Below are positions 21,035-39,566 of a DNA stretch of 64,000 nucleotides, in pieces (position 1 is the stretch's first letter; every line of letters begins with the position of its first letter). The position numbers and the translations under genes are program-made. This stretch comes from Desulfobacterales bacterium (GTDB lineage Bacteria > Desulfobacterota > Desulfobacteria > Desulfobacterales > UBA5852). The notes under the pieces were generated by a model. That model made no database searches, had not been told where the DNA came from, and saw only the letters and a list, made by a program, of their open reading frames with translations. The stretch is taken from NCBI GenBank assembly GCA_963674755.2, contig CAXXVS010000002.1:2528001-2592000 (forward strand), written 5' to 3'.

Positions 21035-21904
21035 CTAAAAATTCTCCCTGATTCTTAGAAAGGAAGGGAATCGTGGTATACCCGACGCATAAAAACCGTA
21101 ATATTTGAACGTGATAAGTGATCCGACAGGAGGCGGATTTTCTCTTACGGCATCGGAAAACCCGGTACCGATCTTGAACTCAATAGTTTTATCCGGCAAA
21201 GCCACCAGCAAGGCCCCCATTCGGCCCGCGTTCCTGCCCTTCCCTGGAAGCTGCGCGATCACCACGGCTTCCATATCGTCGTAGCTTTTGACCTTCAGGA
21301 TGTCCCGGCTGCGCCCGGGGGAATAGGGGGATCCGCGTCTTCTGAGGATGATGCCCTCTCCACCGAGCTTTTCGATGCGATGAAGCTCACTGTCCAAATA
21401 CTTCTGATTTACCACCGGCCGGTGTTCGATGACAAACGCATATGCGGAAGGATGTTCGTCAAACCACTTGGCGGCTTGGCTCAATCGCGTTTCAAATCCA
21501 CCGGGGGCTTCGGGGGCATCGAATATGGCGAACTGCAATTCCAGCCACCCGTCGTGCGACCCTTGTTGCTTGACGATACCGATGGTCTTTTCAAAGGTGT
21601 TGCGTCCCCCCCAGAGTTCCCCTTCAACCGGAAAATCCGGGAAATTGCGGGTAAACGCCGCAGGCGGATCGAAGGGGTTTCCACTCTTGGATAAGAGCCG
21701 ATGGCCGTCCCAATAGCCCCTCACTCCGTCAAGTTTCTCGCTCATCAGCCAGTCGGAAAAATTAATGTGGCCGTCGTATACAAGCGGCAGCATGACATCC
21801 GAAGCATGTATATATGATCCCGGAAAAACCGTCAGGATAACAATCAGAAGAACCATATACTTCGAAATGGTGCCATCACGAAACGCTTCCTCATTGATGA
21901 TCAT
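21035..21904 (-). CDS. Minimal ATP-dependent DNA ligase with signal peptide (Lig E type)
   Basis: SEKLDGVR (KxDG), EGIILR, ILKVK, FKIGTGFSD and PRFP motifs; hydrophobic N-terminus. Confidence 0.92.
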   Translation of the reverse strand: MIINEEAFRDGTISKYMVLLIVILTVFPGSYIHASDVMLPLVYDGHINFSDWLMSEKLDGVRGYWDGHRLLSKSGNPFDPPAAFTRNFPDFPVEGELWGGRNTFEKTIGIVKQQGSHDGWLELQFAIFDAPEAPGGFETRLSQAAKWFDEHPSAYAFVIEHRPVVNQKYLDSELHRIEKLGGEGIILRRRGSPYSPGRSRDILKVKSYDDMEAVVIAQLPGKGRNAGRMGALLVALPDKTIEFKIGTGFSDAVRENPPPVGSLITFKYYGFYASGIPRFPSFLRIRENF

Positions 21905-21991: not shown

Positions 21992-23002
21992 TCAAAAAGT
22001 ATTCTGGGACCCGGTTCGCTCGGCGGGCGTTATATCCTTCGGGAGCGCGGCCGCCCCTAAATCCGGCGTCCGCGACGGCGGCAGGAAGGTCGACATTTCG
22101 ATGCCCATGGGCTCGGACGGCGCGGTCTCGTCTTTGCCGGCACTCTTGGGGGGCAGGATGGTCTCGATAGCCACCCGGTAGACCCGGGCCAGATGATGGG
22201 CCACTTCCGTCATGGGCAGGCCGGCCTCCACGGCGGCCAGATAGGCGTCTACGGCCCCATTGGGATCGCCCCGGCGCTCATGGAGCTGCCCCAGGACCAC
22301 CAGGGCCTCCTGGCGCTCCCGGCCAGTCGCTTCGTTGGCCGCGCCGTCGATCAGCGCCGCCGCCAGGTCGTCATCCGTCTGACCGAAGAAGAGCAGGTAG
22401 CCCGCAAAGAGCCGGTAGCGCACACTTCCTGTCAGCGGATCGGCCGTCTCGGCCATCTTTTGGCGCATCTCGCCCAAACGGCCCGGCGTGATGCCCATGG
22501 TATCGTTGGCCAGCAGCCGGAGGGGAATATCTTCTTCCAGGATGGCCTCCACCTCCGCCCGTCGATCCGCCATGACCAAAGGGTAGAGCTGATTCAGGCT
22601 TACCCCGGCCGCCTTGAGCGGCGCGCGTTCCTTGTGGACCTGGGCCACCATGATGAAGGGCTGCAGGTCTGCCTCCAGCTCCGGGTCCGCTGCAATGGCT
22701 TGCCGGTAATGCGATAGCGCTCCGGGATAGTCTTCCTGGATTAAGGATATGTTACCCAGGGCGGCGTGGGCCGGTCCGTAATCCGGGTCCATTGCGATGA
22801 CCGCTTCGAAGCCCTCTCCGGCCCCCGCATAGTCGCCCTCTTTGTAGAGCTTGCAGGCCCCCTGGTAGCGATGCAGGGTCTCTTTGCGGTAGAGTTCGGT
22901 TCGCAGACCGCTGCAGGACCAAAGGAGTGCAAGAAGAAAAATCACCAAAACTAAGAATCCAATGGTGCGGATCGGTGTCCCTATCAGTATTCTGTTTTCC
23001 AT
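21992..23002 (-). CDS. TPR-containing lipoprotein
   Basis: Lipobox LWSC; TPR motifs (DPDYGPAHAALGNI, ALVVLGQLHE); good SD. Confidence 0.85.
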   Translation of the reverse strand: MENRILIGTPIRTIGFLVLVIFLLALLWSCSGLRTELYRKETLHRYQGACKLYKEGDYAGAGEGFEAVIAMDPDYGPAHAALGNISLIQEDYPGALSHYRQAIAADPELEADLQPFIMVAQVHKERAPLKAAGVSLNQLYPLVMADRRAEVEAILEEDIPLRLLANDTMGITPGRLGEMRQKMAETADPLTGSVRYRLFAGYLLFFGQTDDDLAAALIDGAANEATGRERQEALVVLGQLHERRGDPNGAVDAYLAAVEAGLPMTEVAHHLARVYRVAIETILPPKSAGKDETAPSEPMGIEMSTFLPPSRTPDLGAAALPKDITPAERTGSQNTF

Positions 23003-23020
23003 TCCTCATTACCTCTGTTT

Positions 23021-24814
23021 TTAAAACCGCAGTCCCATGCCCACTTCCACCTGCTTTTCAAACTCGAACGCTGCGCGGTTACCCAGCGACGCATAGGTCA
23101 CCACCTGGTAACGGTGCAGAAATTCCCGGCGATATTCCACCCGCCCGAAAGCGTTAAAGCCGCTGTCCTCGGCGTTCTCACTGTAACGGCCCTGGAGCTG
23201 CACCCCCCAGCGCCGGTTGTCCCAGTCCAGGCGCAGATTGGTTTCCTCATAGGGGGAGAGCGTGGAGGCGTCGATGCTGCGTCGGATCCATTCCAGCGCC
23301 ACCCGGGCGGTCTGCTCCTCCCGCCGGTAAGCTGTGTCCAAGGTAAAACGCCAGGTGCCGCTGGCCTCCGCATCGACGCGGTTCACCTGCAAACTGGACG
23401 TCCACCAGGGGTTCCATTGGTGGGTGGCCGTCCCCAGGAAAGTGTTGCTGGTGCCGAATTCATTCTCCTGGCCGTACCAGTTGAGAAAAAAGGTGTCCCG
23501 CTCGCCGGCGGCAAAACGCAGGGAGGCATCCATTTCACGCAGGGTTTCATCGTCGCTGTGGCGGTTGAGATCAAAAAACTGCATGGTGAAGATGGGGTTT
23601 TTAAAGTAGCGCCAGGTGCTGGGGAGAACGACGTCGGCACCGGCCTCAATACCCCTGGCATCCGTGGTGACCCCGTGCAGCGGGTCGGCAAAATCGGCGA
23701 AAAAGTTCTCCCCCAGGTCGATGTAGCCGCCTGTCAACCGCAGCCGCCCCTGATCGAAGGCCGCCAGGGCCGTATAGCCGTTGTCAGTGCCCTTCACAGT
23801 GTCCTCGGTGTGAGCATATTCCACGGACAACGTTAAAGGCTCGATAATGGGCACCAGCAGGTCGGCGGCCATGGCCTGGTTGCGGTAGCGGTCCTCGCCG
23901 CCGTCGGCCAGCCGGGCCTCCTGGTGGGTGAAACCCGCCCCCCAGCGCCAGCCGCCGTCCTCCCCGAAACGCAAACGGGCCGCCGCCCCGGAGGCCTCCG
24001 TGTCCACATCCCCCTCGGTGGTGAAGGCCAGCCCCGTAGCCTGCCAGGCCCCCAACGCCTGGTCCGCCCGGAAGCCGAACTTCTTGCGTGCGCTTTTATA
24101 ATCGCTGAAGAGTTTGATGGGGTCTTCAAAGTCCCCCAGGCTGTCCCGGAACACCCCCTTGATCCGGCCCTCGGCCCAACGCTGCTCCACAAAGGCCTGG
24201 CTGGCGTCATAGTTGGTGTCCCCGCCGGGATAGGTGTCGATGGCGTCCAGGACGCCGTCCGCCCGGCGGGTGTCGTCGGCATAGGAAAGCCGGGTGCGCA
24301 CCCGCACCTGTCCTGAATCTTCATGGTTTTCCCCGTCATGACGCCAGAAGGAAGACACCGCGCCGCTGATCTTATAGCGGTGCTCTTCCGGCGGGAGAAG
24401 TTCCGGTACAGGGCCGCCTGGCGCGGCCGGCATCGCGGCGATGCGGGCCGCCACCACGCTGCGGCCAATCGTGCCGTCCTTGAAACGCGCCTCGAAGACC
24501 AGCTGGTAGTTGCCCTCGGGCAGCCGGTCGCCATTGGCATCCCGGCCGTTCCATTCAAAGATGTGGTCTCCCGCCAAAAGTTCGATAAAACGCTCTTGGA
24601 GGACCACCTGTCCCCGGAAGTCACGGATACGCACCGCCACCTCTTCGGCATCCTTGCGCAGCTCGTAGGGCACGACAAGCGGCCCCTTGTCCGGGTCGAA
24701 GATGCCTGCATCGTTCAACGGGATATTCAGGTTCTGTTGCGCTGTCGATGGGCGAGGGAAAACCATCAGCGAGACGAAAAGAAGTGTTGCGCAGATGAAC
24801 CGGGATCGAACCAT
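23021..24814 (-). CDS. FlgD-Ig domain plus predicted outer-membrane beta-barrel protein (597 aa)
   Basis: True start is ATG 24814, overlapping the upstream TGA. Signal peptide, WNGRDANGDRLPEGNY, alternating amphipathic strands, C-terminal VEVGMGLRF. Confidence 0.8.
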   Translation of the reverse strand: MVRSRFICATLLFVSLMVFPRPSTAQQNLNIPLNDAGIFDPDKGPLVVPYELRKDAEEVAVRIRDFRGQVVLQERFIELLAGDHIFEWNGRDANGDRLPEGNYQLVFEARFKDGTIGRSVVAARIAAMPAAPGGPVPELLPPEEHRYKISGAVSSFWRHDGENHEDSGQVRVRTRLSYADDTRRADGVLDAIDTYPGGDTNYDASQAFVEQRWAEGRIKGVFRDSLGDFEDPIKLFSDYKSARKKFGFRADQALGAWQATGLAFTTEGDVDTEASGAAARLRFGEDGGWRWGAGFTHQEARLADGGEDRYRNQAMAADLLVPIIEPLTLSVEYAHTEDTVKGTDNGYTALAAFDQGRLRLTGGYIDLGENFFADFADPLHGVTTDARGIEAGADVVLPSTWRYFKNPIFTMQFFDLNRHSDDETLREMDASLRFAAGERDTFFLNWYGQENEFGTSNTFLGTATHQWNPWWTSSLQVNRVDAEASGTWRFTLDTAYRREEQTARVALEWIRRSIDASTLSPYEETNLRLDWDNRRWGVQLQGRYSENAEDSGFNAFGRVEYRREFLHRYQVVTYASLGNRAAFEFEKQVEVGMGLRF

Positions 24815-27800
24815 CAGGAGCAACCCCTTACAGTGATGGCGATGGTATCGATTGCTTGAACCCCTTCGGTGGTGGTGATGGTGGCCTTGATCTCGTAGAA
24901 TCCCCCAGGCCAATATGAGCCATCCCCGCAATTCACCCTGAAGTTGGAGCCGTCGATGACGGTGACCGGGCAGGTGAGTCCGGCCCAGGGCGCATCCACG
25001 GTAATGTCGCCCAGCGTTCCGCTGCCGGTACTGTAGGTCCCCGTCACCGTCAAGTTGTTGCACTGGTCCAAATTTCCCTGGGACGGCGACGTAATGGTGA
25101 TGGCGGGCGGCGTAAAGGAAACCGTGCGGAAGATGTATCCCGCCGCCGATCCTCTTGCGCCGTTGCTGTCCGCTCCGCTCACCTCGATGGTGTTGGCGCC
25201 GTCCGCCAGTGTCACCGTGGCTTCGAAACGGCCGCCATCCCGGTTGAAGGCCACGGGCCCCTGAAGCACGCCGTTGACGCGGATCTCCATCCAGTCGATG
25301 AACTCGGCCTCGCTTGCAACGATGCCCTGCACGCGGACGCTGCCGGCCGTGGTGGTGGGGGGCATGCGGTCCAGGGTAATCGTCAGACCCGCATCGATGG
25401 GAATGGATGGCTGGTAAATCGGCAGCTTCAGGGGCAAAACAAATTCTTCCCCCGGCCCGCAATCGAGGGTGAGGTCCAAATAGGCTTCATAGGGATCGCT
25501 GATGGTCTTCTCCAGGATGTCCCTGCCGATGTCGAGGTCAAATCCTTTCATGGGAACCACGGTGCTGCCGGGCACCATAAGGCCGTAATCCACACTTGCG
25601 GTTTCCACCCGGATGTCGGTGTCCTCGGACGTCAGGCGGCCGATACAGGCCAGATCATCATCGGTGTCGTTGTGCAGGGTGATGAAAAGCCGCACCAGCT
25701 CGCCGGGATTGGCCTGCCCGTCGCCGTTTTGATGCTCGAGCTCCATCAGCGTCAGATTTTCAATAAAAAGGTCCTGGCCGCCGCTCTGATAGGCTGTGGT
25801 GATCTCGGCAGCCCTCGTGAAGCGCAGGCTGTCGCGGGCCTGGTTGCCGTGGCTGTCCGTGGCCGTGATTTCAGCCCGATGGGGACCATCGGACAACTCC
25901 AGGGGACCGTCCACCGCAAAGTAGCCGCTGGCCGGATCGAAGTAGAAATGGGATGGATCCAGGGGCTGACCGTCGATGATCAATGACAGACCGCCGATGT
26001 CCAGATCGCCCCCCATATCGATGATCATGGCGGTCAGGGCCGGCCCGCCGATTTGCCGCACCGCATCGGGCATCACCTTGAAGTCGTAGATGTAGGGGGC
26101 CAGCTTAAAATCGAAAGCCGCCGTTGTTTCGGCCCAGAGGCCTGTGGCGTCCGTGGCCCGGAAACGGGCCAGGTGCGGACCTTCCCCCACCCCGGCCGCA
26201 TAACCGGCTTTGTAGTCGAACCGGCTGCGCCAGTCAGCGTCGGGCCTATTGGAGTAGAGGGTAAGGGGCTGGAGCACCTGCTCATCCAGCCACAAGGTGG
26301 TTTTCTCGGGAACAATCCGGGAGTCGTCCCTGGCCTCGCCCGTCATGAAGGCGGAAGCATTCACGCCATTGCGGGTCGTCGACTGATTGGACGCCTGGGT
26401 TTCGGCCGTCAGGCTTACGTCAGGGGGATCACGCGGTATGACAACGTCGATATCGACAAAGCTGCGGTTGCCCGCCTTGTCCCTCGCGTAAATCCGGAAT
26501 GAAAAAAACTCTCCCTTGGGGGGTGGCGTGAACTTGCTGGTGAGAATGCCGTTTTGAAAAGTGAAATCCGGTTGGCGGCCTGCGTTGCTGCTCCGGTAGT
26601 CCCAGTGAGCGATGCTGTTGGCGGAATCGCTGCTGACGTTCATATCGATCTCAAGCTCGGACAGGGGCATGCCGTGATCGTGGATGGAAGCCTTCAGAAC
26701 CTGTGTTCCCGCATCGAACGAGGGCCGGATGACCGGCGCCAGGATGTCGCGCTCCTCGGCATGGCATTGTGTTATGACCCCTCGTCCCAGTGAGAGCCCG
26801 CATGTAAAACCCGCATTGCGCATGGGGATGTTGCGGTTGCCGGCCCGGGCCATGACGATGTAATAAAATGGTCGGCCTTTGTTTGTATTTTGCGTGCCCG
26901 TCATGGCAAGGGAGGTGCCCCCCGCCCCCCCTCCGGATGGCAGGGCCATGGGCTCATAAAGCCGCTTGTCGTAGCTCTCTCCCACGATCTCCACATACAG
27001 GGGCAACTGCTTCGAGACCGCCTTGGCACTTTCTTTGATGTTCGCGGGATCCAGGGAGCGCAGCTGGACCAGAACCAGGGATTCCGGGCTGCTGTTGAGC
27101 GGCACGAATTGACCGTTGCGGTAATAGCCCCAGGTCATGACGTCCTGGCAAATTTTCACGATGGCTTTACCCTCACCGGTCGTTCCTATGATCTGATCTA
27201 CACCCTTTGTATTCGGGCTGTAGCTGTAAGTCTTGTGTACCGTTGCCTCCGTGCTCTCCTGGGTATCCTCTTGCGGTTCGGCCTCTCCGAATACCTGGCA
27301 GCTATCCGTCGTGGTCTGTTTGGCCAGATCCGTCACGCTCAAACTCGCGGTCTGCACGGAAACCGGTGTGAAGGGCAACTCGGCGGTAAGTTCTCCCGTC
27401 TGGGAATCGAACTCCGCATCCAGACGCATACCGGAAAGCCAGAGGGCGATGGAAAGATCCTCCGGAGGGGTCCCCTCATCCTCAATCCTGGCATTTAGGG
27501 TGTTGGCCTCTCGGTCGTAACGGAAGCTCTCGATCTCCGGCGGATCCAGGCAGACCACGACATCGCCTTCGGTTGTCATGGTGCGGCTGGTGGCGCCCGC
27601 ACCGCCCGTGAGGTCCCAAAATTGGGCGTTTTTGTGGGCAGCGGCGATTTTGTAATGCACCGTTCCCTCCCGGGCCGGCCCCTGGGCCACGCAGGCCTCC
27701 CCCTGGCGCTCGAACCAGTATTTTCTTCCTAGAAACGCGAACCAGGAAGCACCCGTGTCCATCATTTCGATGGGGGCGGCCCACACTTGAGCGATAAGCT

Positions 27801-29226
27801 GATCGCCTTCCTGTTCCACCCGCAGGTTGAACGGTTCGGCGGCGGTTTCTAAATAAACCGGGATGGAAATGGTCTCGTAGGTATAGATAAACGCGTCTTC
27901 CGCTATGTGATAATAGGTGTTGTCTTCAATATCGTAGACGTCCTTTTGCTGCTGGGCTTCACAATAATCGACCTTCGACGGGTCGATACGGCAGGATACG
28001 GGGACCGTTACCAGGAGGGCGTCGATCTGGTCGCCCATGGCGGCGGGATTGACCTGATGGATCGTGAACGATACGCGGCTGTCCTTGAAATCGCTGTCTT
28101 CCAATTTGTGAGCGATGATATTGCCGGATGTGCTTTGAATCTCGATGCGATCACTGACAGCCTTTTGAAAAAAGGCGTTCATGGTGACCACTTCGGATTC
28201 CGTTTCCTTGTCGATCGCCTCCCATTGACGCATGAGTTCGCGTACTTTTTCGGGATAAGAATAGTTCTTGCCGTAGCAGCCGCGGGTAAACACATCGAGC
28301 TGCCTGTCACTTCCCACGGTCAGGGCCATGGCGCTGAAAGCGGGCTGCACAAGGAATTCCATCTCCGTTTCGATATAGGTCTCCCGCCCCTTGCATTTAT
28401 AAATTTCGAAAACCGGGGACACGAGACTCCGGATGGTGAATGTTTCGCTGGCCTGTGCCACGTTACCGGCCCGATCCTGCAGGGATACCGAAACGGTGAA
28501 ACTTGAATCGTGCGCGGCGGCGCCGTCGGGAAAGGCCACGAAAACCGTCAGACTGAGCTCGTTCGCATCGAAAGAGAAAATCCTGTCTTGAAGCGATGCG
28601 CCGCTGACCACCACGTTCAGGGCGCACTCCACCGGGTCGATGGACACGCCCGAACCTTCCTCCGGGTCGGTGATCCGAAAGCGGACCGCTCCGGCGGTGC
28701 GGGGGAAGATATCCCCCTCGGGTTCCACCCGCTCGATGAGGGGGGGCTTGGAATCCACGAAAATGAGCAGTTCTTTACGGTCCTTCTGGCTGCCCTCGCG
28801 GGTAAGGGTCTTGACCGCACCCCGGTGCCGGCCGTCGGCCAGGCCCGGTAGCTTGCCGCTCAAGTCCATTTGTCCGCCCTGCCCGGGCGCAAGTTGAATT
28901 GCAATCGCGTTGTCGTTGGCCGTGGCCTCCACCAGAGAGGGATCATCGGGAACGGCGCCGGGGGTCTGATCGGGGACCAGCGTCGCCGCCACCGCATCCC
29001 GGCCGGAGTTGACATAGACCACTTGGTCGCTAGGGGGATCCGCGGCCCAAAGCCCATGGGGACAGGCGCAGCCAACGGCTAAACCAAGCAGCAGTGCCAT
29101 CCTGAGCCTGGCGGCTGTCCATCGCAACCGGGCTATGGCACGGCAAACGGAACTGAAAACGCCGGATGCTATGGCCGGCAAGAAACATCTGCGGACACTT
29201 TGCGGGAATCGTCGATACGGGGTCAT
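24814..29226 (-). CDS. Large exported protein with multiple Ig-like repeats
   Basis: 1470-codon ORF with repeated D..PP.I ... D.AGN-type modules and a hydrophobic leader. The start may be ATG 29100. Confidence 0.85.
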   Translation of the reverse strand: MTPYRRFPQSVRRCFLPAIASGVFSSVCRAIARLRWTAARLRMALLLGLAVGCACPHGLWAADPPSDQVVYVNSGRDAVAATLVPDQTPGAVPDDPSLVEATANDNAIAIQLAPGQGGQMDLSGKLPGLADGRHRGAVKTLTREGSQKDRKELLIFVDSKPPLIERVEPEGDIFPRTAGAVRFRITDPEEGSGVSIDPVECALNVVVSGASLQDRIFSFDANELSLTVFVAFPDGAAAHDSSFTVSVSLQDRAGNVAQASETFTIRSLVSPVFEIYKCKGRETYIETEMEFLVQPAFSAMALTVGSDRQLDVFTRGCYGKNYSYPEKVRELMRQWEAIDKETESEVVTMNAFFQKAVSDRIEIQSTSGNIIAHKLEDSDFKDSRVSFTIHQVNPAAMGDQIDALLVTVPVSCRIDPSKVDYCEAQQQKDVYDIEDNTYYHIAEDAFIYTYETISIPVYLETAAEPFNLRVEQEGDQLIAQVWAAPIEMMDTGASWFAFLGRKYWFERQGEACVAQGPAREGTVHYKIAAAHKNAQFWDLTGGAGATSRTMTTEGDVVVCLDPPEIESFRYDREANTLNARIEDEGTPPEDLSIALWLSGMRLDAEFDSQTGELTAELPFTPVSVQTASLSVTDLAKQTTTDSCQVFGEAEPQEDTQESTEATVHKTYSYSPNTKGVDQIIGTTGEGKAIVKICQDVMTWGYYRNGQFVPLNSSPESLVLVQLRSLDPANIKESAKAVSKQLPLYVEIVGESYDKRLYEPMALPSGGGAGGTSLAMTGTQNTNKGRPFYYIVMARAGNRNIPMRNAGFTCGLSLGRGVITQCHAEERDILAPVIRPSFDAGTQVLKASIHDHGMPLSELEIDMNVSSDSANSIAHWDYRSSNAGRQPDFTFQNGILTSKFTPPPKGEFFSFRIYARDKAGNRSFVDIDVVIPRDPPDVSLTAETQASNQSTTRNGVNASAFMTGEARDDSRIVPEKTTLWLDEQVLQPLTLYSNRPDADWRSRFDYKAGYAAGVGEGPHLARFRATDATGLWAETTAAFDFKLAPYIYDFKVMPDAVRQIGGPALTAMIIDMGGDLDIGGLSLIIDGQPLDPSHFYFDPASGYFAVDGPLELSDGPHRAEITATDSHGNQARDSLRFTRAAEITTAYQSGGQDLFIENLTLMELEHQNGDGQANPGELVRLFITLHNDTDDDLACIGRLTSEDTDIRVETASVDYGLMVPGSTVVPMKGFDLDIGRDILEKTISDPYEAYLDLTLDCGPGEEFVLPLKLPIYQPSIPIDAGLTITLDRMPPTTTAGSVRVQGIVASEAEFIDWMEIRVNGVLQGPVAFNRDGGRFEATVTLADGANTIEVSGADSNGARGSAAGYIFRTVSFTPPAITITSPSQGNLDQCNNLTVTGTYSTGSGTLGDITVDAPWAGLTCPVTVIDGSNFRVNCGDGSYWPGGFYEIKATITTTEGVQAIDTIAITVRGCS

Positions 29227-29427
29227 AGGCTCGGCATTCGATAAGGTTGAGACCCCTTAGGGGGTCAGACAGGATAAACCGGGTGGCGCCATTGCATGGC
29301 GCACGTCCCCGGCGCGCCCCTGGTGATGGGTGCCCCTGTCACCTGGTGCGCATGATGAAGTGGTCTTGAAGGCGCGTCAGCGTAATGGCCGGACAGCCGT
29401 CCTTCGATCCGATAACGACTCTGTCCA

Positions 29428-29445
29428 TGGCAAAATGAGTGCCAA
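29428..29445 (-). promoter_or_regulatory. Sigma54 promoter facing the Ig-protein operon
   Basis: Minus strand reads TTGGCACTCATTTTGCCA, i.e. GG-N10-GC with TGGCAC and TTGC. Confidence 0.65.
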
Positions 29446-29942
29446 CTCCCCCTACGCAGAATGATTAACGGGACGCATGGGTCCCCGTGGACGAGGCATA
29501 GATGGCGGTCGACTCCGGGGAACCAAAGGCAGGTTAGCGTGGAAAATCAGAACCATATTTTGACGGTGGGGTGTTCAAGTTTATCCCTCCAAGGGGAATC
29601 GCGGCATGATCAAAAAAAAGTTTTCTGCCCGACAGCTTGCTTTCCGCAAACCGTGGCAAGGTTGTTCAGGCTGGCTGTCCGCCCTGTAAGATGGGCGGCC
29701 TGCCTTGCAAAATGGGCACCGGTGGCAGGCAAAATCGTGTTCGCGGGCCGGCCGTCTCGCCATCCGAGAACTTGTCCACAGCCGTCACCTAACGGATGAT
29801 CTTGCAGAAACATATCTGGTAGGCACGATAAAACCGCCCCGAAAGCGATGACGATAAAAAGCTCAAGATATCGGCAGCAATAACCGATAAGATTTCCAAG
29901 TCTGTTATGTCAGCCCTTTTGAGGAGGTCCACAACGAAACGC

Positions 29943-30335
29943 ATGAAAGTCGATGTAACGGTAATCGCAGAGTTTCCGGAAGGTATGTCCCATGAGGTCA
30001 TCGCCAAGCTGGCCAAAGCCACCCGACATCCCGCTGCTTCCCAAAAAACCACAGTAAGCTGTGACGGCCTCAAATGCCTTCCAGGCCGCCCACCCCGCCG
30101 CCGTGTGGCCTGGGAAACGGACGGCATCGATTTCAAACATGCCATCCCGGATGAGGTCTTTCATGCCCGCATTCAGGCCGCAGCCAAATATGGCATTAAA
30201 CTGCAACGCACGATCCGCAGGGGGGAGAACGACGAAACCGACAGCCCCGGAAGGGGCCAGAACGTCTTTTGGACTTGGGGCGAGGGTGATCTCATGGAAC
30301 TTGCTCCGCCGCCGCTGCCGAACACCGCCCCCTAA
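29943..30335 (+). CDS. Hypothetical protein
   Basis: Open frame preceded by a sigma28-like motif (29863-29890) and GAGGAGG at 29921; no recognisable domain. Confidence 0.4.
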   Translation: MKVDVTVIAEFPEGMSHEVIAKLAKATRHPAASQKTTVSCDGLKCLPGRPPRRRVAWETDGIDFKHAIPDEVFHARIQAAAKYGIKLQRTIRRGENDETDSPGRGQNVFWTWGEGDLMELAPPPLPNTAP

Positions 30336-30703
30336 GATTCTGAAACGCGCGACGTGATCGCCCCATGGCGTCGCCCCTCTCATTTTGATCGTGCCGGCAG
30401 CGGGTTGGCCACCGCCAAGGACATCGAGGGGGAAGACGACATCACCGAGCGCAAAGCCCTGCTAGGCACAATCGGCTGCGAGCGATCAGGGCAAGCGCCA
30501 CCCCTTATACCCCCACGCCGACCTCTATCGCCATACCGCGGGGAATGCTCCCCAACCTCTTTTCGGGCTCCCGCCGCAACCACCCCCAAACGCCCCGAAT
30601 CACGAAAATTACGGTTCCCAAATGCACTGTAACATGCTAAGATATATCTCATAAAAAATTTACGGCACTCTCTTCCGAAACCATTCTTAATTGAATTGAA
30701 ACG

Positions 30704-32362
30704 ATGCGCCCCATGTCCAATGCCGTGAAGAAGTCTTTCGGCTGGGGGTTACCGGTTATGCTGGCCATCGGCTGGCTGGTCGCTGCCCTGCCGGCGATGG
30801 CGGCCGAAGCGCCCCGGCGGTATATCAGCCTTGTCAGGGAATTGGACGCACCCACGGCCCGGGCCAAGGTGGAAGCCCTGCAGCCCTTCCTGGCATCCGA
30901 TATCTATTTACCGGAAATCGATATCCAGCATCCGGACGACGGCGCCCTGTTCCCGCCGAACATGGCCGCCCCCCATATTTTCTGGAACGATCCCTTCCTG
31001 CTTTCCGACACCTGGCTCGTTGTCATGGAGGCCCGCAACGGTGCACGAGTATGCTGCTTTACCGACCGGCCGCGCTGGGTGCCGGATCGGTCCACCTGGG
31101 CATGGCTCCGGCAGCAGGCCGGCCACGACCCGACGGGGTTAACCGTTATCGGCTTGGCCCGATCCACCGACCTGCACCCGGTAACCCGCACCCACATCAC
31201 ATTTACGATATCACCGGACCCCTTCGACGGCCTCATCTTCTTCAAACAGACGCGGCTTCCTTTTTTGCGGGCCCGGGAACATCCGGAACAGGCCCGCTGG
31301 GTGCTGGCCGACATCGCCGACGATGGGCCGCCGCAAATCGTCCTGGAAGGGGTCGGCACCTGCGCCCATTGCCACACGTTCTCGCCGGACGGCCATATGT
31401 TCGGAATCGATATTGATCGTAACGGCGACAAGGGGGGCTTTCTGCTGGCCCCAACCGCCCCCCGGATGCAGCTTGGTACTGCGCACTATCTCTCCTGGAA
31501 CAGTTACCGCCCGCAGGACGGCCGCTCCAGCATGGGGCTGTTCACCAAAATATCACCCTGCGGGCGCTACCTGATCAGCACGGTCAAGGAAACATCACTG
31601 TTTGCCATGTTGCCGGATCTCGCCTTTTCACAGCTTTTTTTCCCGCTGGAGGGCCGTCTGGCCGTTTATGATCAGGCGGCCGGCCGATTCTGGGTGCTGC
31701 CGGGCGGTGACCTAAACGATGCGGTGCAAACCTGCCCGGAGTGGAGTCCGGACGGGAAGACGATCATGTTTGCCAGGGCCCCTGTGAACGCTGCCCTGGC
31801 CAAGCAGATGCAGGCTAAAAAATTTCTGGAACCGGCCAGGGGGGAAACCATCGCCGATCTCAACCGGCGCTATCGCATCCGGTTCGACCTCTACACCTTG
31901 CCGTTCAACAACGGACGCGGGGGCACCCCCCGGCGGTTGGAGGGCGCCAGCAGCAACGGCCGCAGCAATTTCTTCCCGCGCTACTCTCCCGACGGGCAAT
32001 GGGTGGCTTTCAACCAGAGCGCCACAGGACTGGTCCTGCAACCGGACAGCGCTCTCTACCTGGTTCGCTCACAGGGCGGTCCGTCGCGGCGCATGCGCTG
32101 CAACACCGGACGGATGAACTCCTGGCACAGTTGGTCGCGCAACAGCCGCTGGCTGGTATTCGCCTCCAAAGCCATGAGCGCCTATACGGAACTACTTCTG
32201 ACCCATGTGGATGCGGCGGGCAACGACAGCCCGCCGGTGGCGCTGAACCGCCTGAACCAGGAAGGGTTTGCGGCCGTGCTCCCAGAAGTCATTCCGCGAA
32301 CATCCATGCCGCTGGAAAAAATTCGATTTGAAGAAGGTTTCTTCAGAAAAATCTCAAACTAA
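30704..32362 (+). CDS. Exported TolB-like (PD40 beta-propeller) protein with one CxxCH motif
   Basis: Signal peptide, CAHCH, PEWSPDGKTIMF, PRYSPDGQWVAF and SWSRNSRWLVFAS repeats. Confidence 0.88.
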   Translation: MRPMSNAVKKSFGWGLPVMLAIGWLVAALPAMAAEAPRRYISLVRELDAPTARAKVEALQPFLASDIYLPEIDIQHPDDGALFPPNMAAPHIFWNDPFLLSDTWLVVMEARNGARVCCFTDRPRWVPDRSTWAWLRQQAGHDPTGLTVIGLARSTDLHPVTRTHITFTISPDPFDGLIFFKQTRLPFLRAREHPEQARWVLADIADDGPPQIVLEGVGTCAHCHTFSPDGHMFGIDIDRNGDKGGFLLAPTAPRMQLGTAHYLSWNSYRPQDGRSSMGLFTKISPCGRYLISTVKETSLFAMLPDLAFSQLFFPLEGRLAVYDQAAGRFWVLPGGDLNDAVQTCPEWSPDGKTIMFARAPVNAALAKQMQAKKFLEPARGETIADLNRRYRIRFDLYTLPFNNGRGGTPRRLEGASSNGRSNFFPRYSPDGQWVAFNQSATGLVLQPDSALYLVRSQGGPSRRMRCNTGRMNSWHSWSRNSRWLVFASKAMSAYTELLLTHVDAAGNDSPPVALNRLNQEGFAAVLPEVIPRTSMPLEKIRFEEGFFRKISN

Positions 32363-32404
32363 CAGGATCCATCAACCGGGCACTGCCTAACCAAGGGAGG
32401 TCTT

Positions 32405-33061
32405 ATGCGAAAATTGCTCTACGGCACCTTGACTCTGTTCCTCTTGATGACGCTTTCCGGCCTTCCGGCGTACGGTTACGGGGGCGGCGGGGGTGGGGGC
32501 GGGGGTGGGAGCGGTAGTGGCGACGGCAGTGGAGCGGACGCCAACATGACGGATCTGGCAAACGGCGAGACCAGCAACCCGCCGGTCGGGTTTACCCCGC
32601 TTCCTCTTGATGAAAACTACATCACCGAGCTGTCCCCCGAACAGACCGCCAGCACCGACCGGACGGCTATCACTGGGGAACCGGAGACCCTGTCGCCGGA
32701 AGAATTGCAGCAATTGCAGGCCGCCTTCGACTTCATCATGATCACAACCGGCGGCATCATATTGGGATATTCCACGGCAGCGGCAGGGTGGACCGTCCTG
32801 GGGCAGGCCACCGCCTCGGGCGCCTATGCCGGCCTGACAACCTACGCCACAAGCGATGATGATAAGGCGGCAGGGAACACCACCAAAGCGACCATCCAGG
32901 ACTTTATAATCGGCTTTATCCCCGTCAACCCGATAGGGCAGGCGGCGATCAGCCAAGGGGTCAACAAGCTCAGAGAAGTCCTCCCCGAACCAAGCTTCAA
33001 CCGTGATCGCGCCTCGCTGGCAACCCTGCAGAGGAGCTTTGATCCCCACTATGCCTGGTAA
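32405..33061 (+). CDS. Exported glycine-rich hypothetical protein
   Basis: SD GGGAGG, signal peptide, a run of 10 Gly, then a Gly/Ala-rich hydrophobic segment. Confidence 0.82.
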   Translation: MRKLLYGTLTLFLLMTLSGLPAYGYGGGGGGGGGGSGSGDGSGADANMTDLANGETSNPPVGFTPLPLDENYITELSPEQTASTDRTAITGEPETLSPEELQQLQAAFDFIMITTGGIILGYSTAAAGWTVLGQATASGAYAGLTTYATSDDDKAAGNTTKATIQDFIIGFIPVNPIGQAAISQGVNKLREVLPEPSFNRDRASLATLQRSFDPHYAW

Positions 33062-33091
33062 ACTGACGCATTCTTTCAGGAGGAAGGCTGA

Positions 33092-34342
33092 ATGAAAACC
33101 GATTTCCGCAACCATCTGCACTTCGCTCTGGTGGTGTGCCTGATCGCCTTCTGGTTGGCAGCGCCAGCCTTGGCATCGGATGTCAATGATCCCCGGGCCC
33201 GCCAATTGGCACTGGCCATCGGCTACGCGATGAGCGGGCAGCAAGACTGCCTCTCCGCTATTGAGGAGGTAGAAACAGGCGCCGTGTTGCAACGGATCGA
33301 TGAAAAGTTGGCCGATCCCGATTTTTACCTGGCCGGCGCCTATATCCATAGCTTCACGAATACAAATGCCAAGGGCTGTCTGTCCGGTCTGATTTATCAC
33401 CGGGATGGCTTGAGCCGCATCATCCTGACGGGATTCAAAGCCGCCTTTCGGGAAGACGCCCGATTGGCCATCACGCGCCTTGATCTGTCCCCCACCTATA
33501 CGCCCACCCCCCGCACGTCGCTTTATTTTGTTCCGGCCGAAAAGGCCTCCGCGGACAGCTTCCGCGGCCTCGCTTTCAAAAAAGCACTGCTGAAGGCCAA
33601 CCGGCACGCCATCCCATCGGAAGGGCGACGGGGCGACAGCCGCCCCAGGGCGTATACCGTGGTGGCCTTCATGATGGACCGCCAACCGCCTGACGTTCAG
33701 ATGGAGATAGTCCAAAGCACCATTTCCGGCAGTGCTTCGGGAGCCCGTCGTCATCATGGGCAAAACCAGGACGGATGGTGTTACACGATCCTTCCTGCGA
33801 CCTTCGCCTACAGCCAGGGAGAGGAAAACTTCTTCAATATCTTCCTCCATGTGAATAAAAATCTCTGGCTGGCCAATACTTACTCTACTCACTCCCTGCT
33901 CATGCGCACCCAGCAGGCTCTGGCTCAGCGGGGATATGATCCGGGCCCGGTCGACGGGCAAATGGGCGCCCAAACACGCCGGGCCATCGAGCGTTTCCAG
34001 AAGCAACAGGGACTTCCGATGGACGGACAACCCTCCCTGGCCTTGCTGGCGCTATTACGGGCGACCGATTGGCCCCCTGCGGTGCCGCTGGTCCAAACAT
34101 CCCTGACAATGTTGGGTTACGATCCGGGACCCATCGACGGCCAGATGGGTCGCCAGACAGCCGGAGCCATCCGTGCCTACCAGAACGCCTGCGGTATGTC
34201 GGCCGACGGAAAACTCAGCGCAGGTCTGCTATGCCATCTGGCCGAAGCCGCCGGCCCCCTGCCGGCCATGACGGGTGGCCAGGGCCTCCGGGTCAAGCGC
34301 TTCACCGCCAAGATGTGGCCTAACATGTTGGGAACCCCCTGA
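33092..34342 (+). CDS. Exported protein with an unknown N-terminal domain and two peptidoglycan-binding (PG_binding_1) repeats
   Basis: Signal peptide ending ALA; two copies of Q..L...GYDPGP.DGQMG.QT..AI...Q...G...DG. Confidence 0.88.
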   Translation: MKTDFRNHLHFALVVCLIAFWLAAPALASDVNDPRARQLALAIGYAMSGQQDCLSAIEEVETGAVLQRIDEKLADPDFYLAGAYIHSFTNTNAKGCLSGLIYHRDGLSRIILTGFKAAFREDARLAITRLDLSPTYTPTPRTSLYFVPAEKASADSFRGLAFKKALLKANRHAIPSEGRRGDSRPRAYTVVAFMMDRQPPDVQMEIVQSTISGSASGARRHHGQNQDGWCYTILPATFAYSQGEENFFNIFLHVNKNLWLANTYSTHSLLMRTQQALAQRGYDPGPVDGQMGAQTRRAIERFQKQQGLPMDGQPSLALLALLRATDWPPAVPLVQTSLTMLGYDPGPIDGQMGRQTAGAIRAYQNACGMSADGKLSAGLLCHLAEAAGPLPAMTGGQGLRVKRFTAKMWPNMLGTP

Positions 34343-34378
34343 AAAAGCATAACGGTCCAACAAGCCGGAGGATAGCTG

Positions 34379-35260
34379 ATGATCACAAAGCAATTTTGGG
34401 CAATATTGACGATAGCCATGATAGCCATGCTGCCGGGCTGCAGCGCGACGCGCCAGATGATGGGGGTGGTCGCCTCCCCGGAGCTGGTGGCTGAATCTTT
34501 GGAAACCATGCCGCCGGATGCGGCCGTAGTAGCCCGCGCCATCGGGAACCGTCTGGGCGGCGATGCCCTGCCGGCCGCTGTGCGGCTGGAGCCTGCGGTG
34601 GATCGGGTTTTAAATACCTACCCGGGAATTGAACCCGGCTTCAGGGTGCGCTCGGCCAATCTATGCCAGTATACGAAAACGGGTACCGGATCCGCTGCCC
34701 GCCGGGCGGCCGGACGCCTCGAATTGCAGGACGGTCTGGGACGCACGGCGGCGGTGACCTTTGAAGCGGATTACGACACCGGACCCCGCACGGTCGTAAA
34801 GAAGGTGCGTATCACCCCTCTTTTCGACACCCCACCCGAAGCGATTTGTTTTGTGGTGCCGGCCCAGGCGGCGCGTCTGGACAAGGGCAATCTTCCCCGC
34901 AGCTTTGCGGCCTTCTACCAATATATGGGCGAACGGGCGCTGAGCCCCCAGGCAGTGGTCCCGGGGGGGGCTTCTGACTATGTGATGGCCGTGTTCTTCC
35001 TGAACCGGATGTCACCTTCGGCCAAAGCAAGCCTGGCCGTTTCTAGTACACCGGCCGGCATCCAGGGCTATGCCAAGGACAGCCGCTATGCCGACTACAA
35101 CGGCTGGCGCGTGGGACTGGTCGCCGGGCGCCTGGCCCTGAAAAATCCCCAGAGCACAAGCAGCGTATATCTCAAAGCCGTCTATACCCCCGGCAAGGAA
35201 GCCGGCTTTTTTAAGATAGCCAAACTGGTGGGCGTGTATGCCTTGGCCCAAAGAGAATAG
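34379..35260 (+). CDS. Lipoprotein, paralog of the N-terminal domain of the upstream gene
   Basis: Lipobox LPGC; colinear motifs shared with the 33092 protein. Confidence 0.83.
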   Translation: MITKQFWAILTIAMIAMLPGCSATRQMMGVVASPELVAESLETMPPDAAVVARAIGNRLGGDALPAAVRLEPAVDRVLNTYPGIEPGFRVRSANLCQYTKTGTGSAARRAAGRLELQDGLGRTAAVTFEADYDTGPRTVVKKVRITPLFDTPPEAICFVVPAQAARLDKGNLPRSFAAFYQYMGERALSPQAVVPGGASDYVMAVFFLNRMSPSAKASLAVSSTPAGIQGYAKDSRYADYNGWRVGLVAGRLALKNPQSTSSVYLKAVYTPGKEAGFFKIAKLVGVYALAQRE

Positions 35261-36887: not shown

Positions 36888-37250
36888 TATCGCTATGGCA
36901 ATAATACATACCAACTCACCATCTTGCAGCCTGCGTCGCCTCCAGTCGACTGCCGCCGCAGGCCAATCATGAGTGCCGGATCTCCTTCAAAAGCCAAAGG
37001 TTGCTCCATATCCGGCCGCCTGCCTCGCCCGTCACAATGACCATCCCTCACGGCCTCGAAGGCCGCCGTAGCCGGTAATGCCCATCCGCCCTTCGATACA
37101 CGCTTCTGCATGGCCAACCGAATCCTAACGAACCGATTATCAGGGGCTAACCTTTACGGCTCTTTTATAGACCCGTTTTCAAGCGCTTGGGATCTCCATC
37201 GGTCGGCGTTTCCCGCCGGCATAACTTTTTTTTGCAACGAGGAGGCTTTG

Positions 37251-37916
37251 ATGAAACATCCTGCGGCCAAAACCGAATCTTCCAAACGCCTCACCCGGCG
37301 TCATTTCCTCAAACAGTCCGCCCTGGCGGGAGCGGCGGTCTTCGCCACCGCCAGCGTGGGGCCGTGGTTCATCAAGGACGCCTTCTCCACTTCGGGTGAT
37401 CTGCGCCTGTTCACCTGGTCCGACTATTCCAAGCCCGAAGTGATCGAGGCCTTTGAAAAGGCCACCGGCATCAATGTAAAGCTGACCAACTACAGCACCA
37501 ATGTGGCCTCCTTCGTCGGCGAGAACCACCGCCTGAAGGGGCGGGTCCAAAAAGCCGCCGGGCCATTGGCGGAAGTAAAACCGCCTCCGGCATCCTCCAC
37601 TGCCAGAACCCGAAACATCTGGGGGAGGGCCATGCCTCCCACCTGTTTATCCGCCCCGAGGCCATTACGCTGGCCAATGGCAACGGCAACGGCAACGGCA
37701 ACGGAGAAAATTGCCTTGCCTGCCGGGTGGAAAACCACCATTTCGAAGGGCCGTACGCCAACATCTTTCTTCGCACCGCCGGCGACGAGGTTCTGACCAT
37801 GCGGTTGAACAATGACGGCCACACGATTGCCCTGGACGCCGGTCAACCCGTCACGGTAACCTTTCGCCCGGCCAGCGCCGTGGCGTTTGACCGGGGGGGA
37901 GAGGCCCCATGCGTGA
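37251..37916 (+). pseudogene. Fused remnants of a PotD-like Tat binding protein (N-terminus) and a PotA-like ABC ATPase (C-terminus)
   Basis: TRRHFLK Tat leader and LFTWSDY..FEKATGI.V join near 37503 to VASFVGEN; LFIRPEA and the TOBE-like tail continue in a shifted frame. Confidence 0.85.
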
Positions 37917-38802
37917 GCTCTGGCAACAGGCCCTGCAAACCTTCGGCCGGGCGGGCCTCACGTATATATTGATGGCGGTGGGGCTATGGCTGCTCTTGAT
38001 GGTTCTGGTGCCCCAACTCATCATGATCGATTACGCCCTGCGTCCCCTGCTGCCCCTCGACAAAATCGGCGGCCCGGAGGATGTCCGGACCCTCGCCAAT
38101 TTCCGGTTTCTCTTCACGAACCCCCTCCATCGCATGGTCTTTCTGAAAACCATCTGGTCCAGTCTCGTAGTGACTGTGGTGGCGCTGGGGGTTTGCTACC
38201 CGATGGCCTTCTACCTCGCCAAGGTCGCCGGGGGCCCCCGGATCGGCTGGATCATGATCGGCCTGATCATCCCCTATTGGATCAATGAACTGCTGCGGCT
38301 GTTCGCCTGGCAGCTCATCCTGTCCGACAACGGCATCTTCAACCTGGTCCTCATGGCCGTCGGCGTCATCCACGAGCCGGTCAATTTCCGGGCCGGCAAC
38401 GGGGCGGTGATCGTCGGGAGGACCTATGCCTATGTGCTGTTCATGGTGTTTCCCCTCTACAACGTCATGGAGAGCCTGGATCGCAACCAGGTTGACGCCG
38501 CCCGGGACCTGGGGGCCTCCTGGTTTCGCATCCATCGCCGGATCGTGGTGCCCCATGCCAAACCGGGCATTGCGGTGGGCGGCATCATGACCTTCATGCT
38601 GGCGGCCGGCTCGATTGCGGCCCCCCAGCTCCTGGGCAGTCCCAGCAGCTTCTGGTTCACGGAAATCATCTATACCCATTTCGAAACGGCGGACTGGAAT
38701 CAGGGGGCGGCCTATGCCACCGTGCTGGCGGCCCTGTGCCTGGCATTCGGCTTTTTGATGCTGAAAGTCTTCCGCGTCAGTTTAAGGGAGCTGGCCCGCT
38801 GA
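37909..38802 (+). CDS. Polyamine ABC transporter permease, PotB-like
   Basis: Multiple TM segments, YPMAFYL, AARDLGAS (EAA loop) and WNQGAA. Confidence 0.88.
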   Translation: MRELWQQALQTFGRAGLTYILMAVGLWLLLMVLVPQLIMIDYALRPLLPLDKIGGPEDVRTLANFRFLFTNPLHRMVFLKTIWSSLVVTVVALGVCYPMAFYLAKVAGGPRIGWIMIGLIIPYWINELLRLFAWQLILSDNGIFNLVLMAVGVIHEPVNFRAGNGAVIVGRTYAYVLFMVFPLYNVMESLDRNQVDAARDLGASWFRIHRRIVVPHAKPGIAVGGIMTFMLAAGSIAAPQLLGSPSSFWFTEIIYTHFETADWNQGAAYATVLAALCLAFGFLMLKVFRVSLRELAR

Positions 38803-39566
38803 TGTCGTCCCAGTCGATCCTCCGTAGCGCCACCGCATGTTATCTGGCCCTGTTTTTCACCTATCTTTTTTTGCCGCTCCTGATATTGAACGGTGTCGAA
38901 CTGGACGGCCTCGATGCCGCAGGCCGCTATTTCCATGTGCTCGTGGTGGGGTCCGGGCATCCTATCCCCCAAGATACGCCGCTTGTGGATGCCATGGCAT
39001 TGGCCCGTCAACAGGAAGCGCTGGTGATCTGGGCCCATCCCCACTGGACAGGCAACACGGTGGCAGAAGCGCGGGGCCACGAATTTGACGGTCTGGAAAT
39101 CTACAACCACGGTTGCCAGTGCGAAATCGGCAAAGGCTATGCCACCTCACAATGGGATGAAATGCTCGAAACCCGTTCCGAAGTTATCGGCATCGCCACG
39201 GACGACGCTCATTTTACAACCGATAGTATGTTCTGGAAGGGGGGCTGGGTCATGGTCGATGCCCCCCGCTGTAAGCGAAGGGCCATTCTGGAAGCTCTCC
39301 GGCAGGGCCGGTTTTATGCCTCCCAGGGGCCGGTCATCCATTCCCTGGAGGTGGAAGACGATCAGGTGCGGATGCAGACCTCGCCGATCCGGTTCGCCCG
39401 CTTGGTCGGTCCCCGCTACAAGGGGGAATGGATCCACCAAACCCGGAAATTCACGGAAGCGGCCTTCCGTCTTCCGACGGACTGGGATTTCGTGCGCCTT
39501 GAGATCGAAGATGCCGAAGGCCGCCGGGCCTGGACCAATGCCCTTCCCGTCTGCTCCAGGCCGTGA
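38802..39566 (+). pseudogene. In-frame fusion of a PotC-like first TM helix to the C-terminal part of a PHP (CehA/McbA-like) hydrolase
   Basis: YLFLPLLIL followed by NGVE, AHPHW, LEIYN, ATDDAH and AWTN; the N-terminal HxH motif of PHP domains is absent. Confidence 0.75.

Follow-up and report, generated by a model that had tools for sequence, protein, structure and literature searches.

Two neighbouring envelope gene cassettes in a Desulfobacterales genome: a candidate surface-display system and a candidate handler-substrate module

Few outer-membrane β-barrels have about 26 strands (LptD, MtrB), each of them defining a pathway. The described systems that come closest to the genes considered here are two-partner (type Vb) secretion, in which a giant Sec-exported protein is encoded beside its own barrel, and the chaperone-usher pathway, with its wide barrel and immunoglobulin (Ig)-fold cargo; for a second group of genes the closest is Tol-Pal, with its propeller, wall-binding protein and lipoprotein. 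The present analysis concerns positions 21992..35260 of a 64,000-nucleotide (nt) stretch of Desulfobacterales DNA, referred to below as the window, whose genome is denoted G000 among other genomes (G numbers) and loci (L numbers). Seven open reading frames (ORFs) lie here in two divergent runs, A, B and C on the minus strand and D, E, F and G on the plus strand. A sequence-only reading had taken all seven for a single wall-anchored, trans-envelope apparatus. Comparison with other genomes resolves the region, with high confidence, into two independently inherited cassettes lying side by side.

Inheritance and layout of the two cassettes

Within the bacterium's own family (17 genomes), A and B occur in the same 11 genomes, always adjacent, while F and G occur in four and full-length homologs of D in six. 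A stands directly upstream of B in all 14 genomes with B, namely 11/11 family genomes and three others at approximately 24–31% identity (G167, G080 and G558), and C follows B in each of the 12 loci where this is visible, the contigs of G549 and G080 ending before C. Both cassettes are carried by G000, G058, G545 and G546, as well as by G080 from another family (G545 shares coordinates with G151 and was counted once), and they are adjacent and divergent only in G000 and G058. In G546 a single contig carries both, 1.65 Mb apart (at 2.36 Mb and 0.70 Mb), whereas in G545 and G080 they sit on different contigs. Eight genomes, 75–98% complete and some of them 96–98%, have A-B with no F/G found (G549, G551, G552, G553, G554, G544, G555 and G167); one of these, G552, whose A is 85% identical to that of the window, keeps the order ligase-C-B-A-X. 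Conversely, at least seven genomes have F/G but yielded neither A nor a full-length B (G099, G152, G153 and G154, by single-protein queries, and G244, G372 and G528), and B is present in 2 of the 25 F/G loci having upstream room. The operons are thus unlinked elsewhere, an outcome that the sequence-only reading had itself named as refuting a single apparatus, and they adjoin in only two of the five genomes with both. Two observations weigh against complete independence: all four family genomes with F/G also carry A-B (Fisher p 0.24 within the family), and G080, the sole non-family genome with B in a 150-genome sample of the order, carries the G family as well, which hints at partial co-occurrence.

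The B family is small, at 50 proteins among 7,996 candidates. Outside its own family B was found in 1 of 148 genomes of the order, 2 of 22 in the class of G167 and, among the matches listed, 1 of 400 in a sample of the phylum; at a threshold of 1e-25 it was not found outside the family in 393 class genomes or 350 further phylum genomes. At 1e-3, the hits obtained (161 of 401) were FlgD-domain matches except those in G000 and G167, among the matches listed. B homologs also occur in Desulfofustis glycolicus (SHI05504.1) and other Desulfobulbaceae. The records of relatives derive from Desulfobacteraceae, Desulfobacterales and Desulfobulbaceae, and those of the G family also from Syntrophaceae, Rhodospirillales and Sneathiella, and a search of plasmids for the B barrel gave no match. 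As full-length B is found in only three genomes outside its own family, the general importance of A-B-C is limited until a function is shown.

The ORFs and coordinates were found as the sequence-only reading had described them, and its account of tight operons was borne out: the stop of A overlaps the start of B (TGATG), and the remaining gaps are 18 nt between B and C and 42, 30 and 36 nt along the right run. Each of the seven genes is single-copy in its own genome, and none of the proteins is named by NCBIfam above its cut-offs. The signal peptide or lipobox that had been assigned to all seven agrees with an N-terminal hydrophobic stretch in each, export signals being judged here from hydropathy and conserved cysteines only, rather than by SignalP. 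The lipoboxes of C and G are non-canonical (LWSC and LPGC) and fall outside the regular-expression pattern used, and the cysteine is invariant in 26/26 G homologs and retained among C homologs. The divergent layout also stood, although an eighth ORF, X (29943..30335, plus strand), had been overlooked in the 1,477-nt gap. X is a conserved ORF of approximately 130 aa, divergent from A and lacking a signal peptide, with no match in Pfam, NCBIfam or PHROG; its homologs lie beside A, divergently upstream, in G552 (86%) and G553 (45%), and none is present in the shorter gap of G058. X possibly regulates A-B-C. Promoter and terminator counts in the region are at the level of shuffled sequence.

The right cassette and its variable protein E

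The right cassette includes G (34379..35260, plus strand), a predicted lipoprotein whose profile recovers 430 clusters at 50% identity. Its partner F (33092..34342, plus strand) is exported and joins the same domain pair to two PG_binding_1 domains; as had been read from the sequence, F is a peptidoglycan-binding protein by domain content and the two are paralogous (24% over 228 aa, E 2e-7). The model of G (pLDDT 82.0) predicts an NTF2/VirB8-like domain (residues 44–150) followed by an Ig-like domain (150–292), with best Z scores of 8.5 and 8.2 that are generic, no Foldseek match at E ≤ 0.001, and Atlas hits of 0.80 or lower, which are uninformative. An N-terminal hydrophobic stretch is present in 119 of 129 long representatives, and among 47 hits, chosen mostly for length, the domain is fused to PG_binding_1, SHOCT, Sel1, cohesin/dockerin, CBM96, FGE-sulfatase or cytochrome P460; some proteins carry it twice and are thus F-G fusions. 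Neither E nor G has a Pfam match above cut-off, and by its predicted fold G is the founder of an unnamed NTF2+Ig family.

The propeller protein D (30704..32362, plus strand) is an accessory member, present in 11 of 25 F/G loci and also found without F/G in G542 and G544. Its description as a TolB-like propeller with CxxCH is supported by a PD40 match and by the motif at residue 220, which is invariant in 12/12 aligned homologs; the TolB model TIGR02800 scores 28.7 bits against a cut-off of 343. Because alignment places the motif where a blade of the propeller 2OJH starts, haem binding is doubtful, and a disulfide or metal site is favoured. In G544 translation of the D homolog is coupled to that of a gene for a fatty-acid cis/trans isomerase (CTI; L136:7798-11855), and in G542 (L137) it comes after a Sel1 and PG-binding protein. 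A second E-G-D copy occurs in G545 and G058, with matching hits in G546. Such a paralogous cassette immediately precedes, in the same orientation, the gene for a protein of approximately 1,900 aa that appears polyketide-synthase-like by eye (L134:7261-10841 and L135:7067-10589).

Protein E (32405..33061, plus strand) consists of a signal peptide, a mature N-terminus of the form Y-(G)n, a PPxGFxP motif, a variable acidic linker and a Gly/Ala-rich hydrophobic C-terminal region. The signal, Y(G)n and PPxGFxP are conserved among relatives, and the linker (about 20 to about 250 acidic residues) and C-terminus vary. The C-termini are mostly Gly/Ala-rich hydrophobic helices, with unrelated ones in L010/L043 and L134/L135 and two copies of E in L031. 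In L010 and L043 alone the different C-terminus is accompanied by a next gene with a swapped N-domain that retains PG-binding. Of the 25 loci that leave 1,600 nt or more upstream of the G family, 22 have an E-like gene, defined by a hydrophobic signal and Gly-rich head, immediately before it; the count excludes 19 loci that are shorter and one that lacks a profile hit. By the motif, E is the only such protein in its own genome. E has a conserved N-terminal head and swapped C-terminal domains, one of the features of polymorphic toxin systems.

Tentatively, E may serve as a variable substrate of F/G, a handler-substrate module being the likely nature of the right cassette. In such a module G, as an outer-membrane lipoprotein, and its predicted wall-bound paralog F would recognise the Gly-rich/PPxGFxP head of E, leaving its variable and often hydrophobic C-terminus as the working end, probably membrane-active, with the propeller D optional. 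Several points weigh against this assignment. The E-like test was defined after the sequences had been seen, and several of its loci are near-duplicates; its loose form is satisfied by 626 of 23,459 six-frame ORFs of the own genome, and the motif form by five. Moreover, E has no immunity-like neighbour, no Pfam match and no match to a toxin family.

Nearly as likely is a structural tether or stress module of the Tol-Pal kind, in which G and F would link the outer membrane to peptidoglycan, D would bind them as TolB binds Pal, and E would be a flexible spacer. Such a tether is a serious possibility, though short of an even one: PG_binding_1 is present on F and on many G-family fusions, D is a TolB-type propeller, VirB8-like domains act as assembly scaffolds, and the linker of E varies over its range in a ruler-like manner. 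However, no TolQRA-like motor is found as a neighbour, D is missing from 14 of the 25 loci, and the swapping of the C-terminal domain of E between loci, along with its duplication in L031, makes E more cargo-like than scaffold-like. For the G family, with its 430 clusters and lack of a Pfam match, the analysis supplies a predicted fold and, in E, a recurrent partner whose recognition motif can be tested.

Downstream of the right cassette, at 37110-39566 of the window, are ABC-transporter genes for a binding protein and permeases that seem to be truncated or frameshifted; one permease apparently continues into a PHP-like domain. This suggests a decayed segment beside the cassette.

The left cassette as a candidate display system

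Protein A (24814..29226, minus strand) is an exported tandem Ig-like repeat protein with a 1470-aa ORF, its start probably being Met44 at 29097. It is a chain of Ig-like modules with D-x-A-G-N-type repeats, a conserved D-G-x-A-N-P-G-E domain (residues ~1150–1270) and C-terminal Ig domains, best conserved over residues ~1040–1380 and lacking the last Ig domain in G167. Only Ig families, and no catalytic domain, were found in nine A homologs. Protein B (23021..24814, minus strand; start most likely at 24814) carries a signal peptide, an FlgD-Ig domain and a predicted outer-membrane barrel ending in Phe, and C (21992..23002, minus strand) is a TPR protein and predicted lipoprotein. The domains first assigned to this operon were recovered by Pfam as Big_13/Glucodextran_B in A, FlgD_ig in B and TPR in C. 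Profiles of A and B do not match each other, and a search for an A-B fusion in 7,993 longer candidates found none, a weak negative. In G552, A is frameshifted into several pieces with B and C intact (L130:8693-13113), and A of G555 is likewise in two frames; these reflect either assembly error or decay. Elsewhere in the own genome, an 813-aa ORF holds several Ig repeats like the C-terminal domains of A (G000:C1:827361-829802, minus strand). The gene after C in G000 (window 21035-21904, minus strand), G058, G552 and G554 encodes a short ATP-dependent DNA ligase (PRK09125) whose N-terminus is hydrophobic.

FlgD_ig is matched by all 38 members of the B family examined, and their barrel belongs to no Pfam family, Porin_4 matching weakly in 7 of 38. 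The AlphaFold model built from these 38 sequences (pLDDT 77.8, pTM 0.62), which supports the barrel of the sequence-only reading, predicts the FlgD-Ig domain and 26 strands in residues 148–597, with a terminal Phe. Accordingly, B is predicted to be an FlgD-Ig domain joined to a barrel of approximately 26 strands of no named family. The top matches of a structural search are all outer-membrane barrels. MtrB (6r2q_B) superposes on the whole barrel (residues 144–598, 412 aligned, 4.9 Å, Z 14.0, 7% identity), as do FimD ushers (365–377 aligned, 4.2–4.6 Å, Z 14.3–14.5). TonB-receptor alignments begin at residues 34–69, which suggests, rather than shows, that the Ig domain takes the position of the plug. 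Three features of the model count against this picture: the best Z scores (15.9–16.1) go to ordinary porins, the 18-strand ones (Z 15–16) covering only residues ~145–466 at approximately 7 Å; the pTM of 0.62 leaves the placement of the Ig domain uncertain; and strand amphipathy is barely above that of shuffles (1.78 vs 1.45 ± 0.21), with 313 of 5000 shuffles reaching the observed value. Atlas look-alikes of the barrel, which are leads only, score 0.95–0.96 in unnamed clusters of Pseudomonadota, Cloacimonadota and Eisenbacteria, and 0.93 for DUF6029, an uncharacterised family that has been proposed as a possible polysaccharide-export barrel (PMC9603273).

A is probably displayed through B. In the mechanism proposed, A, B and C would cross the inner membrane via Sec and BAM would insert B into the outer membrane, where the FlgD-Ig domain probably gates a wide lumen, as does the Ig plug of ushers. 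A would then thread through B one domain at a time and stay attached there, forming a stalk or adhesin, and the TPR lipoprotein C would probably assist assembly. An Ig-headed Rhs toxin with a signal peptide may take the same route in some lineages. The constant pairing of the barrel with one Ig polyprotein and one TPR lipoprotein makes A-B-C a compact three-gene candidate for a new route of surface display.

A less probable alternative is that A-B-C acts inward, as an uptake or conduit module. B would then be a large MtrB- or SusC-like channel, with its Ig domain or C as the plug, and A, rather than being secreted through it, would act as a scaffold or binding protein in the periplasm or at the surface. 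The longest barrel alignment is indeed that to MtrB, DUF6029 is among the Atlas neighbours, and the weak Porin_4 matches point the same way. Against such a conduit, CxxCH haem motifs are absent from A, B and C; no gene for a TonB plug, a cytochrome, glycan synthesis or a transporter recurs as a neighbour in the loci read; and A has no recognised binding or catalytic domain. Most improbable is the single seven-gene machine, for which the adjacency in G000 and G058, the A-B of every F/G-bearing family genome and the two cassettes of G080 may be cited, and which linkage and co-occurrence largely refute, the operons being unlinked in three of the five genomes carrying both and each being found in genomes where the other was not. 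What survives of a wall-anchored outer-membrane system is that each half is a conserved envelope unit; the predicted wall anchor F belongs with the right cassette and not with the barrel. Overall, two independent cassettes, with A-B-C as surface display and E-F-G as a handler-substrate module, offer the best explanation, one held with modest confidence.

The association with Rhs toxins is a lead and not a defining feature of A-B-C. A signal-peptide Rhs/YD gene directly follows C on the same strand in G555 and G551, of different genera, where it overlaps the stop of C (1,441 aa) and follows a 52-nt gap, respectively. The two proteins are approximately 29% alike, and both start with a domain of about 110 aa that appears Ig-like by eye. 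The T6SS sheath family was found in none of six genomes tested (the control was positive). How signal-peptide Rhs toxins get out of diderm cells that lack type VI secretion is a question on which A-B-C may bear. Weighing against this link, Rhs adjoins in only 2 of the 11 loci where this is visible, signal-peptide Rhs genes also turn up in four genomes in which no A-B was found (G099, G123, G152 and G548), and no Rhs was found in G167 or G558, both of which have A-B-C. An exclusive role in Rhs delivery is thus unsupported. The split of 8/11 against 1/6 (p 0.05) counts only two Rhs lineages, chosen afterwards, among kin. A shared cargo tag was also considered and rejected, as a profile of the Rhs N-terminal Ig domain matched only the Rhs itself in the own genome.

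That protein, a stand-alone ortholog at 61% identity, is encoded outside the window (C2:1834090-1839699, minus strand) and has 1,869 aa, a signal peptide and an Ig-like head; behind it lies a gene for a 295-aa exported protein, ankyrin-like by eye, which is a likely immunity gene. Orthologs of the Rhs occur in G545, G546, G551, G552 and G058, in pieces in G546 and G552. Several unrelated signal-peptide Rhs architectures, of up to 2,785 aa and accompanied in G099 by orphan C-terminal cassettes, are present in L154, L155, L156 and L160, whose genomes yielded no A-B.

Both cassettes are real and undescribed, and of the two A-B-C makes the stronger case for a new display system. Neither is described in full-text literature searches, which covered titles and abstract openings (subscription papers and supplements lay outside their scope), and no family model names the B barrel, the G/F domain pair, E or X. 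An unlikely but wider synthesis would make A-B-C an unnamed secretion system of sulfate-reducing bacteria, in which folded Ig domains would leave through an Ig-gated 26-strand barrel to form a stalk of 1,400 residues, and the barrel would also serve Sec-exported Rhs toxins where cells lack type VI secretion; E-F-G would be a second unnamed export or targeting module, with Y(G)n/PPxGFxP-tagged substrates bearing interchangeable membrane-active tips.

Comparison with described systems

The sequence-only reading had also stated that these genes match none of the T1SS–T6SS, curli, Tad, Tol-Pal or Bam gene sets. A-B-C fits no named family, and type Vb, chaperone-usher and Tol-Pal systems each have defining features that are lacking here. 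The right cassette shares with Tol-Pal a TolB-type propeller, a wall-binding protein and a lipoprotein; in contrast, no TolQRA or Pal was seen by eye among the ORFs of the loci read, and D falls far below the cut-off for full TolB. A Sec substrate with a conserved head and variable tail beside a lipoprotein recalls Neisseria MafAB, and the YGGGG-like N-terminus of E recalls the CsgA/CsgG signal of curli, but the predicted fold of G is NTF2+Ig, no CsgG or MafA match is listed, and no immunity-type gene lies behind E.

Among the systems related to the left cassette, type IX secretion differs in that FlgD_ig is N-terminal on the barrel protein and absent from A, so that the cargo has no C-terminal FlgD/CTD sorting domain; SprA_N was not found in the own genome, in a search where no control genome gave a match either. 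Slam (type XI) likewise combines TPR and barrel, and intimin-type inverse autotransporters combine barrel and Ig stalk. Unlike these, A-B-C divides TPR, barrel and stalk among three proteins, with no A-B fusion found. TPR_Slam is below cut-off in C, and the predicted barrel, at 26 strands vs 14 in Slam, is about twice as large. The MtrAB conduit shares the 26-strand barrel (only predicted in B) and gives the longest structural alignment, yet MtrAB/PioAB differ in the 7% identity, the lack of an MtrB/PioB Pfam match and the lack of a haem motif in A, B and C.

The chaperone-usher systems of FimD and PapC share a wide barrel (fit 4.2–4.6 Å), an Ig-fold domain on the barrel protein and Ig-fold cargo. 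However, no Usher or PapD-family match in Pfam or NCBIfam was found in A, B or C, A is one covalent polyprotein instead of separate pilins, and the Ig domain of B is N-terminal and of the FlgD type. Two-partner secretion is matched in the Sec-exported giant protein A, encoded beside its own barrel B and inherited with it as a pair (14/14 genomes). It differs in that none of the 38 B members matches POTRA or ShlB, approximately 26 strands are predicted instead of 16, A is built of Ig repeats with no TPS or haemagglutinin domain in nine homologs, and a TPR lipoprotein is present as a third partner. Together, these comparisons are consistent with A-B-C being, as is likely, a dedicated-barrel, Sec-fed surface-display system akin to two-partner and usher secretion that lies outside the membership of each.

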